Source: a virus
Length of the DNA stretch: 64,000 nucleotides
IMG/VR virus record: IMGVR_UViG_3300048598_000530
Coordinates: 28,439 to 92,438 of that record
Direction: 5' to 3' (one strand)
Shown: positions 28,054-56,743 of the stretch, piece by piece
How positions within the stretch are numbered: position 1 is the first letter of the stretch
Layout: every line of letters starts with the position of its first letter
Notes under the pieces: generated by a model
Database searches by the model: none
Seen by the model: only the letters and a program-made list of their open reading frames with translations
Told to the model about the DNA's origin: nothing
Position numbers and translations under genes: made by a program

Positions 28054-28473
28054 TTAATTTATATGTTTATGAATCTGAATTACACGCTCTTGACCTAATG
28101 CTTTTTCTTTTGTGGGATGTCTACCCAATAATCTATCTTCATCATGTGTATATAAACACCATTGTTGCTCAGAATCAGGTCTTTCATCTTTATCTTTTTT
28201 AGGACATCTTTTAATTATTGCTATTTTGCTAGAACTATCTATAGCATCACTATTCGTATTCAATCTAGAAACCAATTGACTTATAAAGGATGTCAAATCT
28301 AGATAACTCGCGTTTTCTCTAAGTTTGAACTGTTTGATTAGTTCCTTAGACAGTTTTTTCTTTTTATAAAGAATTTCAGCATTTTGCTCTAACATGTCTT
28401 TGCCATTTTGAGCGTAATCGCGTCTTTCTTTTAAAGGTTCTAAGATTTGTGCAATAATTTTCTCTGTATTCAT
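28054..28473 (-). CDS. Hypothetical protein
   Basis: 139-aa ORF; C-terminal WCLY...LLGRHPTKEKA. Confidence 0.55.
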   Translation of the reverse strand: MNTEKIIAQILEPLKERRDYAQNGKDMLEQNAEILYKKKKLSKELIKQFKLRENASYLDLTSFISQLVSRLNTNSDAIDSSSKIAIIKRCPKKDKDERPDSEQQWCLYTHDEDRLLGRHPTKEKALGQERVIQIHKHIN

Positions 28474-48972: not shown

Positions 48973-50022
48973 TCATGTAATTTCTTTGATAACTTTATGC
49001 TTATTACTCCACAAACTATTCTGTTTCAAGACTGTAACAATTACTCTTTCATAAACATTACATCTTTTAGCAAGTTCTTCAATCGAGATAAAATATTTAT
49101 GAAATTCTTTAATTATTTTATTTATTATTTGTTTGTTTCTTATTTTTGAACATGCTAAAGTGTGTCTTTTAAATGTCGATTCATTATGTAAAACTTTTCC
49201 ACAAACACAAGTCTTTCTAGTTATACATTCGTTTGGAAAATGCTTATTAAAAAATCTCTTGACAAAATGTTTTGTTTTCTTCCATTTTTTTGATAGTTTT
49301 AAACTAATATTATCGCTACCTAAAAATAAACTTGCATCATTTAAGTATTTGTCTAATTTACTCTTAACTTTGCTTTCTTTAAATTTCAATTCTTTTAACT
49401 TTTTTTCTTGTTCAACTTTAAGACGTCTACATTGATACAAAGTATAATCTTCAACACAAATTTCAGTTTGTTTTGTATTAGACAAAATTTTTAAAATTTG
49501 TTTTATTCTTGTTTTAGGTGTTTTAATAAAATCTTTCCAAACTATACGTAATACTTTTACACCTTGTTTATTTATATACAAATCTTTTTTTGTATCGAAA
49601 TTTTTTCTTTTTTCATGTTGTTTCCCATCAATTTCAACAGCTAGTTTTAATTTAAAAAAATAAAAATCAACACGATAAAAACTAAAAGGAAATTCTCTAA
49701 AAAAATCTTTATCTTTTTCATAACCATTATTAATTAAAATTTTTTCAAAAAACTCTTCAGCATAAGAAAATCTATTCCAACCCTTTGATCTTCCTATCAT
49801 TATCTCAGATTGTGTTCTTTGAATGTCTTTAAGAATTTCATCAAGTTTTGCTTTTGTACACCATTTTTCTTTGTAAAGTTGTTTTTTTGTTGCTCCCTCA
49901 AGATATCTTTTTCTTACTTCATTTATTTTTATTTGCTCAATACAAGCTTTAAAATGTCTAGAATAACTTGATATGCGAATTTCTTTACCACATTTTTCAC
50001 AATTTTTATAATTCATAAGCAT
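48973..50022 (-). CDS. DUF559/Vsr-like endonuclease with Zn fingers (putative homing endonuclease)
   Basis: REFPFSFYRVDF...AVEIDGKQH. Confidence 0.75.
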   Translation of the reverse strand: MLMNYKNCEKCGKEIRISSYSRHFKACIEQIKINEVRKRYLEGATKKQLYKEKWCTKAKLDEILKDIQRTQSEIMIGRSKGWNRFSYAEEFFEKILINNGYEKDKDFFREFPFSFYRVDFYFFKLKLAVEIDGKQHEKRKNFDTKKDLYINKQGVKVLRIVWKDFIKTPKTRIKQILKILSNTKQTEICVEDYTLYQCRRLKVEQEKKLKELKFKESKVKSKLDKYLNDASLFLGSDNISLKLSKKWKKTKHFVKRFFNKHFPNECITRKTCVCGKVLHNESTFKRHTLACSKIRNKQIINKIIKEFHKYFISIEELAKRCNVYERVIVTVLKQNSLWSNKHKVIKEIT

Positions 50023-50481: not shown

Positions 50482-50547
50482 CCGATCAGATTTGAACTGA
50501 TGACTTCGCTTTGGAAGAGCAAGATGTTTCCACTACAACACGGTTGC
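50477..50547 (-). tRNA. tRNA-Gly(UCC)
   Basis: GCAACCG/CGGTTGC acceptor, loop CTTCCAA, U73; weak D-stem. Confidence 0.85.
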
Positions 50548-51427
50548 AATAATATTCTTTCCAATCTAAACCTTGATATTTTTTACTTCCTGTTCTTTTT
50601 TTAATATATGTTTGTTTATCAATATCAGGGAAGTTTAAACGTAAAAATTTTCTGATACTAGTTCCAGATATTCCTAATTTATTTTTTGCTTCTTTAAGCC
50701 ATCCTCGTTTAGACATATCAATAGTTTTAAGAATTTCTAATTTGTTTTTAATTTCTTCTTGTCTTTTATCTTCTTTTTGTTTTTTCTTAAAATTTTCTCG
50801 TTTAATTATTTCATCTAACAAGTTTAATGTCTTCAATTGTGTTTTTGTCAACTTATTTATTTCTATTTCTTGTTCTTTTTCGTTTTTTAAAACTCTTAAA
50901 GTTTCTTCTAATATTTGTTTTGTATTATTGAATAACACTTTAAAAGAAATTCTTAACACCTTATAACCTAAAGATTTTAATAATTCGTCCTTAGATTTAT
51001 CTGAAATTTGTCTATTTTTATATTTATAATGTTGTTGTCCATCTATCTCAATTGCAAGTTTTAATTTTAAGAAAAAGAAATCAATTCTATATTTTGAAAC
51101 TTGAAACTCTCTAACATAATCAATATTTGTTTCAAACCCGTTATTTATCAAAAAATTTTCAAAAAACTCTTCTGCATAAGAACGATTTTTCCAGCCTTTA
51201 CCTTTTGACAATTTCATTGCTTCACTTGCTGTTCTAAATTTACCTTTTAATGCGTAACTTACAAGACTATAAGTGAAACCTTTTTCTACTATTTCTCTAC
51301 TGCACAAGCCTTGGTCATAAAATAAACATATTTGTTCGCGCTCGTTTTGTGTTATGCACACATGATTTGAAAAACTTTGCTTTATAATAGTACGTAAACA
51401 ACGAGAACATGTTTGTGTTTTTGACAT
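50486..51427 (-). CDS. DUF559/Vsr-like endonuclease (putative homing endonuclease); 3' end runs through tRNA-Gly(UCC)
   Basis: REFQVSKYRIDF...AIEIDGQQH. Confidence 0.75.
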   Translation of the reverse strand: MSKTQTCSRCLRTIIKQSFSNHVCITQNEREQICLFYDQGLCSREIVEKGFTYSLVSYALKGKFRTASEAMKLSKGKGWKNRSYAEEFFENFLINNGFETNIDYVREFQVSKYRIDFFFLKLKLAIEIDGQQHYKYKNRQISDKSKDELLKSLGYKVLRISFKVLFNNTKQILEETLRVLKNEKEQEIEINKLTKTQLKTLNLLDEIIKRENFKKKQKEDKRQEEIKNKLEILKTIDMSKRGWLKEAKNKLGISGTSIRKFLRLNFPDIDKQTYIKKRTGSKKYQGLDWKEYYCNRVVVETSCSSKAKSSVQI

Positions 51428-51447: not shown

Positions 51448-51537
51448 TGGCTGACAGGGAGGGACTTGAACCCCCACAGAGTTTCACCTCGTACGCCACA
51501 TTAACAGTGTGGTCACTTGCCATTAGTGTACCTGTCA
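51448..51537 (-). tRNA. tRNA-Asn(GUU) with an atypical 20-nt variable arm, CCA encoded
   Basis: TGACAGG/CCTGTCA acceptor (U1-A72), G73, loop CTGTTAA, variable region CGTACGAGGTGAAACTCTGT. Confidence 0.8.
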
Positions 51538-52066: not shown

Positions 52067-52139
52067 AATGACTCCTTACTGCATCCTCTGGTGGGATGCT
52101 ATTGTTTGGATGCCATTATATCCTCCTTTGTTAAATTAA

Positions 52140-52221
52140 TAGGAACGGCGGGATTTGAACCCACATTTACAACATACCAGTTACGATTATCCACCTTATA
52201 AGAGTGGCTCGGTACATTCCT
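52140..52221 (-). tRNA. Non-canonical tRNA-Ile(UAU)-like RNA (D-loop-like element 3' of the anticodon arm)
   Basis: AGGAATG/CGTTCCT acceptor, GTGGG-TTCAAAT-CCCGC T-arm, CCACT-CTTATAA-GGTGG anticodon arm, no D-arm at the normal position. Confidence 0.7.
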
Positions 52222-52227
52222 GTAAAA

Positions 52228-52304
52228 TCTTCTCGATTGGAGTTGAACCAATATGTCACCAATTACCCTTTCTACACCGTATCAGAGTGAGGGGATACGA
52301 GAAG
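52228..52304 (-). tRNA. Non-canonical tRNA-Ile(GAU)-like RNA (same rearranged topology)
   Basis: CTTCTCG/CGAGAAG acceptor, ATTGG-TTCAACT-CCAAT T-arm, CACT-CTGATAC-GGTG anticodon arm. Confidence 0.7.
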
Positions 52305-53291
52305 TTGTTTGCTATAATAAGTTTTCCAGTCGCAATTTTGATATTTCTTAACACTTGTTCTTGGTTTGAAATATGTTTGTTTGTCAATTTCAGGAAAATT
52401 CAATCGTAAAAACCTTCTTATATAAGTACGCGATACTTTAAGTTTTTTTGATAAACTAGTTATCCAACCCCTTTTAGTAATATCTGAATTTTCTAAAATC
52501 ATTTGGAGTTTCTTTTTTATTGTTTCTTCTTTTAGTTTTTTAATTATTTGTTTTTCTTTTAACTTCTGTTCTTGATCTTGTTTTTCTTTAATTTTTTTGA
52601 ATTTATAATATTCAATTACACATTCAGAAAAATTATATAATTTAGGTTGTAAATCAAAACTATCAAGATATTCTAAAAATTGTTTTTCAATTTGTTCAAA
52701 TTCATTTTTTAATTTAAACCCAGGAATTCTAAAAACTTTCCAACCTAATTTTATCAGTTTTTCATTTCTTTTGATATCAATTTGTTTTTGACGCTCACAA
52801 AAAATGTGTTGTGAACCATCAATTTCTACATCAAGTTTTATATTTAAGAATGCAAAATCTAAATAATAAGGAAAAATGCTATATTCTCTTATTATATCGA
52901 ATTTTTCAGAAAGACTGTTTCTTTCAATGATATCTGAAAATATCTTTTCAATATAAGTTTGTTTATTTCTTCGCCATTCGTTTGTACGTTGCATTGACAT
53001 ATATTTTTTTCTGCCATCACGTATTCTTTGTCTTGTTTGTTCTGAAACTTTTCTTGAGTTCTTATGATAAAAAATCTTCATTTGTTGTGATAAACTTCTC
53101 TTATTGTTTTTTATCAAGTACTCTACTGTAGATTTATTGTAGCCCATCTTAATTATTTTACCTGCACTCAATAAATCTTCATAGTATAATTTTAAAATTT
53201 CTTTATTTTCTTGCTCATTGCATTTTTTAATATGATGTGCATAGTTAGATTTTGTTTTAAAAACTTTTCCACAAATTTTGCAATTCCACAT
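52272..53291 (-). CDS. DUF559/Vsr-like endonuclease with an N-terminal C2H2 finger; 3' end overlaps the Ile(GAU)-like RNA
   Basis: CKICGKVFKTKSNYAHH; REYSIFPYYLDF...DVEIDGSQH; ATG at 53291 after AAAGGAG. Confidence 0.75.
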   Translation of the reverse strand: MWNCKICGKVFKTKSNYAHHIKKCNEQENKEILKLYYEDLLSAGKIIKMGYNKSTVEYLIKNNKRSLSQQMKIFYHKNSRKVSEQTRQRIRDGRKKYMSMQRTNEWRRNKQTYIEKIFSDIIERNSLSEKFDIIREYSIFPYYLDFAFLNIKLDVEIDGSQHIFCERQKQIDIKRNEKLIKLGWKVFRIPGFKLKNEFEQIEKQFLEYLDSFDLQPKLYNFSECVIEYYKFKKIKEKQDQEQKLKEKQIIKKLKEETIKKKLQMILENSDITKRGWITSLSKKLKVSRTYIRRFLRLNFPEIDKQTYFKPRTSVKKYQNCDWKTYYSKQLLVSPHSDTV

Positions 53292-53412
53292 TTGAACTCC
53301 TTTAGTAGCGTCAGACAAGCACTCTAATCTAGCTTATTGATAAAAGGAGTACAAATAGTTTTCAAAACACTAAATTTCAAAGAGCAAAATTCAAGCATAA
53401 TAAACTTGAAAA

Positions 53413-53484
53413 TACTCCTACCGAGAATCGAACTCGGATGCCAACAGTGAAAATGTTGTGACTTAGCCATTGGTCTATAGGAGC
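53413..53484 (-). tRNA. tRNA-Glu(UUC)
   Basis: GCTCCTA/TAGGAGT acceptor, loop TTTTCAC. Confidence 0.88.
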
Positions 53485-53499
53485 AATTTTATTTTAAAA

Positions 53500-53572
53500 A
53501 GCCCAGGACAGGGATCGAACCCGCGACATCTACATTACAAGTGTAGCGCTCTACCAACTGAGCTACCTGGGC
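53500..53572 (-). tRNA. tRNA-Thr(UGU)
   Basis: GCCCAGG/CCTGGGC acceptor, loop CTTGTAA. Confidence 0.93.
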
Positions 53573-53588: not shown

Positions 53589-53623
53589 AAAAAGAAACGG
53601 ACCCTGAATTTCTTCAAGGTCCG
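53589..53623 (-). terminator. Attenuator terminator upstream of the tRNA operon
   Basis: CGGACCTTGAA-GAAA-TTCAGGGTCCG (11 bp, one G.U) followed by TTTCTTTTT. Confidence 0.9.
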
Positions 53624-53658
53624 CATCCTAAATTTTATTTTTATATTAGGATGCGGAC
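53619..53658 (-). promoter_or_regulatory. Antiterminator hairpin overlapping the terminator 5' arm
   Basis: Perfect 13-bp inverted repeat GTCCGCATCCTAA / TTAGGATGCGGAC sharing 53619-53623 with the terminator stem. Confidence 0.85.
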
Positions 53659-53659
53659 A

Positions 53660-53737
53660 TTACCCTCCTGTTTCGTCATTACCGTTTATGGTAATACGAT
53701 TTTCGCGGGCTCTGTTTGCTATCCTTGTTGTTTTCAT
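53660..53737 (-). CDS. Leader peptide MKTTRIANRARENRITINGNDETGG (25 aa) of the tRNA operon
   Basis: Hand translation; the stop codon abuts the antiterminator and the codons mirror the downstream tRNA set. Confidence 0.85.
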   Translation of the reverse strand: MKTTRIANRARENRITINGNDETGG

Positions 53738-53743
53738 GTTTTT

Positions 53744-53772
53744 AATATAACAAATAAAAATGTAAATGTAAA
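53744..53772 (-). promoter_or_regulatory. Sigma70-type promoter giving a leaderless leader mRNA
   Basis: TTTACA (53772-53767), 17 nt, TATATT (53749-53744) with an upstream TG; the A of ATG is 7 nt downstream. Confidence 0.7.
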
Positions 53773-56054: not shown

Positions 56055-56200
56055 TAGAACAATGCTCTTTTAACAGTGATTGCTTACATTACTTTATAGC
56101 TCAGTTGGTTAGAGCGACCGCCTTAAAAGCAGTAAGTCTCAGGTTCGAATCCTGAAAAAGTAGCCAAAATCTAGCATTTACAACTCAGAGTATTGTTCTA
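56055..56200 (+). ncRNA. Y-RNA-like cassette 1: conserved scaffold enclosing a full tRNA-like cloverleaf (56090-56166, UAA loop, CCA)
   Basis: Closing stem TAGAACAATGCTC/GAGTATTGTTCTA; motifs TTTAAC..TGCTTACA and TAGCA..AACTC. Confidence 0.75.
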
Positions 56201-56222
56201 ATTTTAATAACATGAAAATTAT

Positions 56223-56375
56223 TAAAACTGCTCTTTAACAACAGGTGCTTACACATGGTTTAAGTTAGTCCGAAAGACTAATGAAGACGTTCGAATCGTC
56301 TATTCCCCGTTAAGGAAATTTAAGTTTCTTTAACGGGGAATAAAAAGTTCAGCACGTGAAACTCGAGCAGTTTTA
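56223..56375 (+). ncRNA. Y-RNA-like cassette 2: scaffold enclosing a short hairpin, a T-arm and a 17-bp acceptor-like hairpin
   Basis: Closing stem TAAAACTGCTC/GAGCAGTTTTA; AGACG-TTCGAAT-CGTCT T-arm. Confidence 0.75.
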
Positions 56376-56389
56376 TTTTTTGAAATAAT

Positions 56390-56520
56390 CAAGTGTTCTT
56401 TAACTTTAAATGCTTACATGCTTTTTAGCTCAATGGTCGAGCAATTATTTGGGTATAATGGGTTCTTGGTTCAAGTCCAAGGGAAGCGACAAAAAATAGC
56501 ATTTTGAACTCGAACACTTG
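56390..56520 (+). ncRNA. Y-RNA-like cassette 3: scaffold enclosing a degenerate tRNA-Pro-like cloverleaf
   Basis: Closing stem CAAGTGTTC/GAACACTTG; GCTC/GAGC D-arm; CTTGG-TTCAAGT-CCAAG T-arm. Confidence 0.75.
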
Positions 56521-56537
56521 TTTTTTATAAAGGAAAT

Positions 56538-56688
56538 AAAGTCGTGTCTTTTAACGCTGAAAGCATACATTTTTTTCGTCAGTTCAAATCTGACTATCTC
56601 CTCGGTGAGGGGATATGGCCGAGCGGTTTAAGGCAACCAACTGCTAATTGGAACACAAAAATAGCTCTCAAAACTCAGACATGACTTT
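56538..56688 (+). ncRNA. Y-RNA-like cassette 4: scaffold enclosing a circularly permuted tRNA-Ser(GCU)-like module
   Basis: Closing stem AAAGTCGTGTC/GACATGACTTT; arm order T-arm, closed acceptor, D-arm, anticodon arm. Confidence 0.75.
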
Positions 56689-56717
56689 TTAGTTAAATAG
56701 TTTGGTGGTAAGTTAAA

Positions 56718-56743
56718 GGGGCTCAGTTAAAGAGCCCCTTTTT
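56718..56743 (+). terminator. Intrinsic terminator ending the ncRNA array
   Basis: GGGGCTC-AGTTAAA-GAGCCCC-TTTTT. Confidence 0.9.

Follow-up and report, generated by a model that had tools for sequence, protein, structure and literature searches.

Two adjacent genes on the minus strand, within positions 52140 to 52304 of a 64,000-nucleotide stretch of viral DNA (positions 28,439 to 92,438 of IMG/VR record IMGVR_UViG_3300048598_000530; this whole stretch is called the window below), are supported by comparative evidence as encoding selected tRNA-shaped RNAs with a rearranged arm order. In these RNAs, designated tRNA1 and tRNA2, the anticodon arm would lie inside the remnant of the D-arm, and the D-loop would lie 3' of the anticodon arm. 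They are probably a working pair of phage elongator tRNAs for isoleucine with a rewired core, tRNA2 (anticodon GAU) serving AUU and AUC, and tRNA1 (anticodon UAU) serving AUA. An earlier reading of the window, made from the sequence only, had described them as a topological isomer of tRNA that keeps the L-shape. The rearranged arm order in that description now has comparative evidence behind it, while the L-shape is a proposed conformation deduced from sequence.

Structure of the two genes

The acceptor stem has all 7 of 7 pairs in both genes. Both anticodon arms have 5 base pairs (bp) and a loop of 7 nucleotides (nt) (CU-UAU-AA in tRNA1 and CU-GAU-AC in tRNA2) with U33 and, as the purine at position 37, A37. 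Both T arms have 5 bp, a UUCRANY loop (UUCAAAU and UUCAACU, respectively) and the G53-C61 pair. The 7-bp acceptor stems, canonical T arms, A73 and Ile anticodon loops named in the sequence-only reading were thus all recovered when the two genes were read through. The distance from A9 to the anticodon stem is only 5 nt in both, and therefore there is no D-arm in the usual place (positions 9-26). None can be drawn in either gene, as had been claimed. The anticodon arm and the T arm are separated by 26 nt in tRNA1 (with GUAACUGGU) and by 21 nt in tRNA2 (with GUAAUUGGU).

From 5' to 3', tRNA1 consists of the acceptor strand AGGAAUG (pairing with CGUUCCU), U8 A9 C10, CGA, G, the anticodon arm CCACU-CUUAUAA-GGUGG, the linker AUAA, UCG, the putative D-loop UAACUGGU, AU, G, UUGUAAA, U, the T arm GUGGG-UUCAAAU-CCCGC, the acceptor 3' strand and A73. 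The corresponding parts of tRNA2 are CUUCUCG (pairing with CGAGAAG), U8 A9 U10, CCC, C, UCACU-CUGAUAC-GGUGU (the outermost pair of this stem being U-U), AGAAA, GGG, UAAUUGGU, GACAU, AUUGG-UUCAACU-CCAAU, the acceptor 3' strand and A73. The two genes represent different sub-designs: in tRNA1 the linker has 4 nt and the connector is long (UUGUAAAU), and tRNA2 has a U-U-closed anticodon stem, the 5-nt linker AGAAA and a 6-nt tail, UGACAU. CCA is encoded by neither gene; elsewhere in the 119-kb record there is a weak, sub-threshold match to a nucleotidyltransferase. The coordinates are listed in Table 1, where H1 denotes the short stem enclosing the anticodon arm.

Table 1. Coordinates, in window positions, of the two genes, their proposed elements and the neighbouring endonuclease-like open reading frames (ORFs)
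Feature	Position	Strand	Remarks
tRNA1	52221-52140	minus	82 nt; predicted rearranged-core tRNA-Ile; anticodon UAU at 52200-52198; discriminator A73 at 52140
tRNA1 enclosing stem H1, 5' strand CGA	52209-52211	minus	pairs with UCG at 52184-52186
tRNA1 enclosing stem H1, 3' strand UCG	52184-52186	minus	family covariation
tRNA1 putative relocated D-loop UAACUGGU	52176-52183	minus	invariant U-A (A14-like), A41 (R15-like), G44 G45 (G18 G19-like), U46 (position-20-like)
tRNA1 C10	52212	minus	pairs with G49 (52173); putative remnant of the D-stem 10-25 pair
Spacer UUUUAC between tRNA1 and tRNA2	52227-52222	minus	6 nt
tRNA2	52304-52228	minus	77 nt; predicted rearranged-core tRNA-Ile; anticodon GAU at 52283-52281; discriminator A73 at 52228
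tRNA2 enclosing stem H1, 5' strand CCC	52292-52294	minus	pairs with GGG at 52266-52268; register from relatives
tRNA2 enclosing stem H1, 3' strand GGG	52266-52268	minus	family covariation
tRNA2 putative relocated D-loop UAAUUGGU	52258-52265	minus	A42 (52263) R15-like; partner U52 (52253) just 5' of the T stem
DUF559/MTES_1575-type endonuclease-like ORF	52272-53318	minus	last 11 codons are the first 33 nt of tRNA2
DUF559/MTES_1575-type endonuclease-like ORF	50486-51427	minus	overlaps tRNA-Gly(UCC)
DUF559/MTES_1575-type endonuclease-like ORF	48973-50022	minus	directly upstream of a tRNA gene

A phage-borne family with the same layout

The rewired design of tRNA1 and tRNA2 appears to derive from a family carried by phages, with Arg, Ile and CAU members, and not to have been invented in this phage. 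A BLAST search with tRNA1 recovered a copy of 82% identity in LR756502.1, the record of a huge phage, the acceptor stem of which is wholly different in sequence yet fully paired. tRNA2 matches 77 Streptomyces phage records (Stanwilliamsviridae) with 79-85% identity over 61 nt, and also bajarodcaudo virus 1. A nucleotidyltransferase gene immediately precedes the Streptomyces phage homologue, which is unannotated in nearly all of the listed records. Matches of tRNA2 to Flavobacterium and Prevotella phages are 22-23 nt long and were rejected as chance matches.

The core pattern of the family is present at more than 119 loci in IMG/VR, about 55 of which parse as complete tRNA-shaped genes. The fetched loci were scanned by structure only (acceptor stem, T arm, and an anticodon arm starting 4-9 nt past the acceptor), and the results were passed through a motif filter. 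The same layout was found in 84 distinct genes at 49 loci (phage contigs, named phages and the window). By anticodon, these are GAU (19), UAU (17), CAU (5), UCU (22), UCG (10), ACG (8), CCU (2) and UGU (1), that is, 36 Ile, 42 Arg, 5 CAU and 1 UGU genes. The sampled members come from phages of Streptomyces and Maribacter and from huge phages in metagenomes. Prokaryote genome contigs gave at least 120 matches to the core pattern, none of them tRNA-shaped among the matches listed; thousands of chance matches are estimated for these 596 Gb of data, in which rare prophage copies might also occur. The class thus appears to be phage-borne in the sample examined, with prokaryote pattern matches arising by chance only.

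The core UA-(N)-CCGAG...UAWUCGUA-R..GG...UGAAAAY is common to the Arg and Ile members, which points to a probable single origin of the two branches followed by anticodon switching, rather than to repeated invention. The Arg members of the sample also share with tRNA1 H1, the pair formed by position 10 (N10) and the pair of the 15-48 type described below. A subset of the rewired Ile and Arg tRNAs (L060:13235, L068:4102, L086:2803, L088:4368, L123:936 and others) carries an extra hairpin, UUGA-loop-UCAA, in the connector 5' of the T arm, resembling a small variable arm.

The class is widespread and mostly unannotated, and tends to be missed by standard gene finders. For example, the Ile(GAU) member of Streptomyces phage EGole (L124:2496-2572) bears the wrong public label tRNA-Leu (UUA), and the Arg(UCU) member of Maribacter phage Panino (L247:1488-1567) lies partly under a coding sequence annotated as 'hypothetical protein'. 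Because annotation mostly misses the rewired genes, the tRNA repertoires recorded for phages, and analyses of their codon supply, are incomplete where Ile and Arg are concerned.

Covariation of the enclosing stem and the N10 pair

A common parse applies to all 84 genes (84/84): the acceptor 5' strand; U, A and N10 (plus N11 in most Arg members); the 3-nt 5' strand of H1; one base; the anticodon arm; a linker of 3-5 nt; the 3-nt 3' strand of H1; U-A-R-N(1-2)-G-G; a tail; the T arm; the acceptor 3' strand; and N73. The fully paired H1 combinations are CGA/UCG (55), CAG/CUG (3), CAG/UUG (2), CCC/GGG (3), CUC/GAG (2), CGC/GCG (2), CGU/ACG (2), CGG/CCG (1) and ACC/GGU (1). Two of the three pairs are formed in 12 genes, and two genes are misparsed at the H1 step.

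Statistics were derived from the 46 genes whose 5' junction is 7 nt long, aligned with MAFFT (A2), together with an anchor-based parse. A MAFFT alignment of all 84 genes (A1) offset Arg against Ile by one base and was not used for this purpose. In shuffle tests of A2, which are inflated by kinship among the sequences, the proposed pairs are 96.5% paired versus 60.0% in shuffles, and the covariation score is 0.936 versus 0.230, the former being reached by 0 of 500 shuffles. When the partners are slid by 1-3 columns, pairing falls to 33-42%. Double changes are seen in the acceptor, anticodon and T stems and in H1 of A2; H1 is 92.8% paired, with changes on both sides at 3/3 pairs. The sequence-only reading had argued for selection on structure instead of decay, and the compensatory changes at all three H1 pairs agree with it. 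Of the two features whose loss in homologues would have told against that reading, the enclosing stem is kept in the family, and the GG motif is present throughout but was required by the filter.

The partner of N10 lies a few nt 3' of GG. The corresponding A2 columns, 10 and 51, contain C-G (24), G-C (5), U-A (3), U-G (2) and A-U (1), with 5 unpaired. In the Arg branch, an N11 pair is also present (C-G 33, U-A 2, A-U 1). The D-stem would survive as one pair in the family and as two in Arg members. In tRNA2 the N10 pair is U10-A49; both letters are invariant in the tRNA2 subtype, so that this pair is only consistent with the design.

The register of H1 in tRNA2 is set by its relatives, which have ACC/GGU (Streptomyces phages EGole and StarPlatinum), CGC/GCG and CUC/GAG (CAU members), and CCC/GGG (bajarodcaudo virus 1). 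Of the two enclosing stems proposed in the sequence-only reading, CGA/TCG of tRNA1 stands, while CCCT/AGGG of tRNA2 is one register off CCC/GGG and was rejected, because CGC/GCG and CUC/GAG in the closest relatives fit only CCC/GGG. In the tRNA2 sequence itself CCCT/AGGG is slightly better in energy (-16.2 versus -14.2 kcal/mol). A 4-bp helix extended by U8·G and A9-U pairing with the UUG that follows the N10 partner was also dropped, since its four letters are invariant and show no covariation; in relatives with the inserted hairpin, moreover, UUGA pairs with UCAA.

The relocated D-loop and the identity bases

The purine after the invariant UA varies together with the last base 5' of the T stem: the combinations are A-U (59), G-C (20), G-G (4) and A-C (1) (n = 84), and one-sided changes are absent within the 46 sequences of A2. 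In tRNA1 this pair is A41-U57, with the U at 52165. Such covariation is the signature of the Levitt 15-48 tertiary pair (R15-Y48) of canonical tRNAs.

The base after GG is A in all 42 Arg members, U in 31 of the 36 Ile members and U in all 5 CAU members. All 36 Ile members have A73, and every member of the family has A37. Bacterial ArgRS relies mainly on A20, and the determinants listed for bacterial Ile identity include U20 and A73 (PMC9976931). By their letters, the position-20 and A73 bases of the family match these bacterial Ile and Arg identity sets (PMC9976931). Both tRNA1 and tRNA2, with A37, A73, U after GG and anticodons UAU and GAU, carry the bacterial Ile set.

A D-loop-like motif after the enclosing stem had been noticed in the sequence-only reading. 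The R15-Y48-type covariation and the position-20 identity link now support it, and the motif 3' of H1 would, on this comparative evidence, behave as a true D-loop. The 15-48-type covariation, the identity bases and the canonical T-loops together argue that the elbow and core contacts of the L-shape may be retained, and that synthetases may read the rewired RNAs in the usual way.

Gene-finder and covariance-model scores

Whether standard gene finders would miss the two genes had been raised in the earlier reading. tRNA1 and tRNA2 are both absent from the ARAGORN calls, which number 12 for the window and 13 for the 119-kb record. The Rfam tRNA model (RF00005) matches tRNA1 with 35.8 bits (gathering score 29) by deleting the D-arm and placing a 23-nt insertion at the variable position, and gives no match to tRNA2 even at E ≤ 10. 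A covariance model (R1) was built from 44 members of other genomes (alignment A3), with the window excluded. Against R1, tRNA1 scores 85.1 bits (E 6e-21) and tRNA2 61.0 bits (E 2.7e-14), the E-values being rough, and the best canonical tRNA of the window 29.5 bits. Both genes thus score significantly against R1, as would be expected of members of the class.

Function in the phage and proposed structure

The 119-kb viral record has about 31% G+C and is classed as a provirus in IMG/VR; its tRNA cluster lies at about 48.8-53.6 kb of the window. The 13 ARAGORN tRNAs of the record are Arg (2), Gly (2), Asn (2), Asp, Ala, Glu, Thr, Leu, one unclassified tRNA-like gene and one with a CUA anticodon. 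No canonical tRNA-Ile is called by ARAGORN in the 119-kb record, which has exactly two rewired Ile genes. Isoleucine codons make up 614 of the 8351 codons (7.4%) in 15 large ORFs, with 353 ATT, 70 ATC and 191 ATA. AUA thus accounts for 31% of Ile codons (191/614), or 23 per thousand codons.

In the fetched loci, none of the 17 rewired UAU genes is accompanied by a canonical UAU tRNA in the same locus; for rewired GAU genes and canonical GAU tRNAs the count is 7 of 19. Rewired GAU and UAU genes occur together, often with CAU, in other phage contigs (L009, L038, L060, L086, L088 and L123). Upstream of the tRNA operon of the window lies a leader ORF, MKTTRIANRARENRITINGNDETGG (53589-53772, minus strand). 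Its two ATA codons and one ATT codon, from which the sequence-only reading had suggested function, were counted as described, and say little about function.

In the proposed structure, the chain would run from the acceptor 5' strand through U8 A9, N10, an H1 strand, one base, the anticodon arm, a linker of 4-5 nt and the other H1 strand to the D-loop, U-A-R-N1-2-G-G-N20. The N10 partner would come next, followed by a connector whose last base is a pyrimidine, and then by the T arm and the acceptor 3' strand. The anticodon arm, with a 3-bp extension, would have been moved from positions 26-44 into the D-arm, 5' of the D-loop, leaving one or two D-stem pairs (10-25 and 11-24). The N10 pair, H1 and the anticodon stem may stack as a single arm, about 10-12 layers long. 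The D-loop would form an 8-nt bulge that contacts the T-loop via G18 G19, and R15 would pair with Y48, giving the L-shape. During infection the two tRNAs would supply Ile decoding, the UAU tRNA reading the frequent AUA codons without lysidine. Given what is established, it is reasonable that a UAU anticodon would bypass TilS.

Several observations weigh against a working tRNA-Ile pair of this structure. IleRS is not encoded in the record, so that charging would fall to the host enzyme. The record is about 52% complete, and a canonical tRNA-Ile could lie elsewhere. The predicted energy of tRNA1 is -18.2 kcal/mol with or without H1, which therefore adds nothing; the whole-molecule z-scores are weak (-1.1 and -0.4), and thermodynamics is neutral. 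The family sample is biased, because the fetch pattern fixes CCGAG, UCGUA and GG for most loci, and the motif filter required UA-R-N0-3-GG, so that the invariance of the fixed letters is partly built in; the family covariation was drawn from neighbours and BLAST matches that differ from the fetch pattern. The sequencing runs holding the region contain it as low-share contigs of DNA type, from wastewater and sludge, and are uninformative on RNA ends or expression.

As to why the core is rewired, an adaptation in a conflict over tRNA is an attractive but tentative and rather doubtful explanation. The surfaces for IleRS, EF-Tu and the ribosome would be kept. The D-arm/anticodon-arm geometry seen by host tRNA-directed nucleases, or by the phage's own host-tRNA-degrading enzymes, would, with similar doubt, have been removed. 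If this is true, the Ile and Arg decoding of the phage would survive the cutting of canonical tRNAs.

Alternative explanations

The two RNAs may be tRNA-like molecules not used for decoding, such as decoys for host tRNA-directed nucleases, or regulators sensed by a leader or a T-box-like element; this is unlikely. With so unusual a core they could be used poorly by the ribosome, genes for RNA repair and quality control lie nearby in the window together with tRNA-like Y-RNA modules, and the 7 of 19 rewired GAU genes beside a canonical GAU tRNA are not always the sole decoder. However, the anticodon loops are fully canonical (U33, A37), and the anticodons are limited to a few sense-codon families. 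A73, U20 and A20 obey synthetase identity rules (PMC9976931). Moreover, no other Ile tRNA was found in the record, and the UAU members are without a canonical twin in their loci. A decoy would not need canonical loops, identity bases and non-redundancy together.

It is very improbable that the genes are D-armless tRNAs with a long variable arm of the class II type, in which the resemblance to a D-loop is accidental. The best RNAfold structure of tRNA1 does place an 8-bp hairpin there (-20.1 kcal/mol), and some relatives possess a true inserted hairpin (UUGA-loop-UCAA) further downstream. Across 46 homologues, however, the predicted variable-arm hairpin is 59% paired versus 60.2% in shuffles, with a covariation of 0.052 versus 0.070, and it is H1, the N10 pair and the 15-48-type pair that covary instead. 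Neither a cloverleaf, the conventional fold that the sequence-only reading had weighed against its own proposal, nor a fold with a long variable arm fits the two genes.

That the genes are pseudogenes decaying after D-arm deletion and a nearby insertion, perhaps caused by the neighbouring endonucleases, is scarcely credible. Three DUF559-type endonuclease-like ORFs do lie in the cluster, one running into tRNA2, and ARAGORN calls neither gene. However, 84 genes have this layout, every stem shows compensatory changes, the acceptor stems are intact although entirely different in sequence, and the covariation already contradicts decay.

Genomic neighbourhood

The three endonuclease-like ORFs of Table 1 are paralogous (33-40% identical), each lies directly upstream of a tRNA gene, and they are probably homing endonucleases. 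Only one of the three adjoins a rewired gene, and therefore no specific link between the endonucleases and the rewiring is seen here. In run X1, which contains a related phage from activated sludge, one contig joins position 52138 to 53570 (short side 31 nt) and so skips or replaces both rewired tRNAs, the endonuclease ORF and tRNA-Glu. This one contig hints that the block 52138-53570 may be a variable cassette.

Other unusual tRNA-like genes were seen in the window. At 51448-51537 (minus strand) there is a 90-nt tRNA-Asn(GUU) with a long variable region, beside a normal tRNA-Asn(GUU). At 56055-56743 (plus strand) there are four tandem small-RNA units, each following the repeated promoter-like motif TGYTCTTTAAC-N8-9-GCTTACA. 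They carry a full tRNA-Leu(UAA)-like gene, a T-arm joined to a long hairpin, a tRNA-like gene whose anticodon loop is short, and a tRNA-Ser(GCU)-like module in circularly permuted form. The units lie just upstream of an ORF called TROVE/Ro60 in an earlier reading of the sequence, and resemble RNAs of the Y-RNA/YrlA type.

The CUA-anticodon tRNA lies outside the window, on the minus strand (record C1:115081-115153), and is labelled tRNA-Pyl by ARAGORN. It hints at a possible amber suppressor, and the phage may read TAG as sense in some genes. Another non-canonical tRNA-like design was found in phage contigs at L027:3706, L068 (minus strand, about 7442 on the reverse complement) and L088:2633. 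It has covarying acceptor stems, the short 5' junction ACAG and a loop with CCA (Trp-type).

Comparison with known systems

Cytoplasmic tRNAs are taken to share one arm order, that of the cloverleaf, and to our knowledge the exceptions shorten or lose arms but never reorder them. A description of the present arm order was not found in the searchable full-text literature, subscription-only papers being outside its scope. A 2020 review of non-canonical tRNAs mentions neither phages nor reordered arms (PMC7609411). If tRNA1 and tRNA2 are charged and decode, they would be a natural case of the tRNA L-shape reached via a different chain topology. It would then be worth asking how shape, and not connectivity, is read by RNase P, synthetases, EF-Tu and the ribosome, and the two RNAs would offer a new scaffold for engineered or orthogonal tRNAs.

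With canonical tRNA-Ile(GAU) (RF00005) the two RNAs share the 7-bp acceptor stem, the 5-bp/7-nt anticodon arm with U33 and A37, the 5-bp T stem and the UUCRANY loop, as well as A73, the U after G18 G19 and R15-Y48-type covariation. They differ from it in that the putative D-loop lies 3' of the anticodon arm, a new 3-bp enclosing stem is present, and there is no D-arm at positions 9-26. From class II tRNAs they differ in that, across the family, the variable hairpin predicted for tRNA1 shows no more pairing than shuffles do.

The tRNA-Ile(UAU) of bacteria without TilS, such as Mycoplasma mobile, is an ordinary cloverleaf. tRNA1 resembles it in having a UAU anticodon and would likewise read AUA without lysidine, acceptance of U34 by the host IleRS being assumed. 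Circularly permuted tRNA genes also exist in Cyanidioschyzon merolae and some archaea, where processing of the transcript restores a normal tRNA; as in tRNA1 and tRNA2, the order of tRNA segments in the gene departs from the textbook order. Unlike in these permuted genes, the acceptor strands of tRNA1 and tRNA2 sit at the two ends of the gene, and therefore the mature RNA itself must carry the new order.

Allo-tRNAs, which have 8/4 or 9/3 acceptor/T branches, occur in metagenomes and phages and often have a UAU anticodon (PMC5389517); the paper describing them does not describe this arm order. In allo-tRNAs it is the acceptor and T stem lengths that change, with the arms in their usual order, whereas tRNA1 and tRNA2 have the standard 7/5 lengths and a changed arm order. 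The metazoan mitochondrial tRNA-Ser(AGY) and the nematode mitochondrial tRNAs are D-armless and functional in translation (PMC7609411). In the mitochondrial D-armless tRNAs, G18 G19 are gone along with the D-loop, and these tRNAs depend on flexibility (PMC7609411). In contrast, tRNA1 and tRNA2 appear to keep a full D-loop motif with GG, relocated along the chain, as well as a canonical T-loop and the 15-48 pair.

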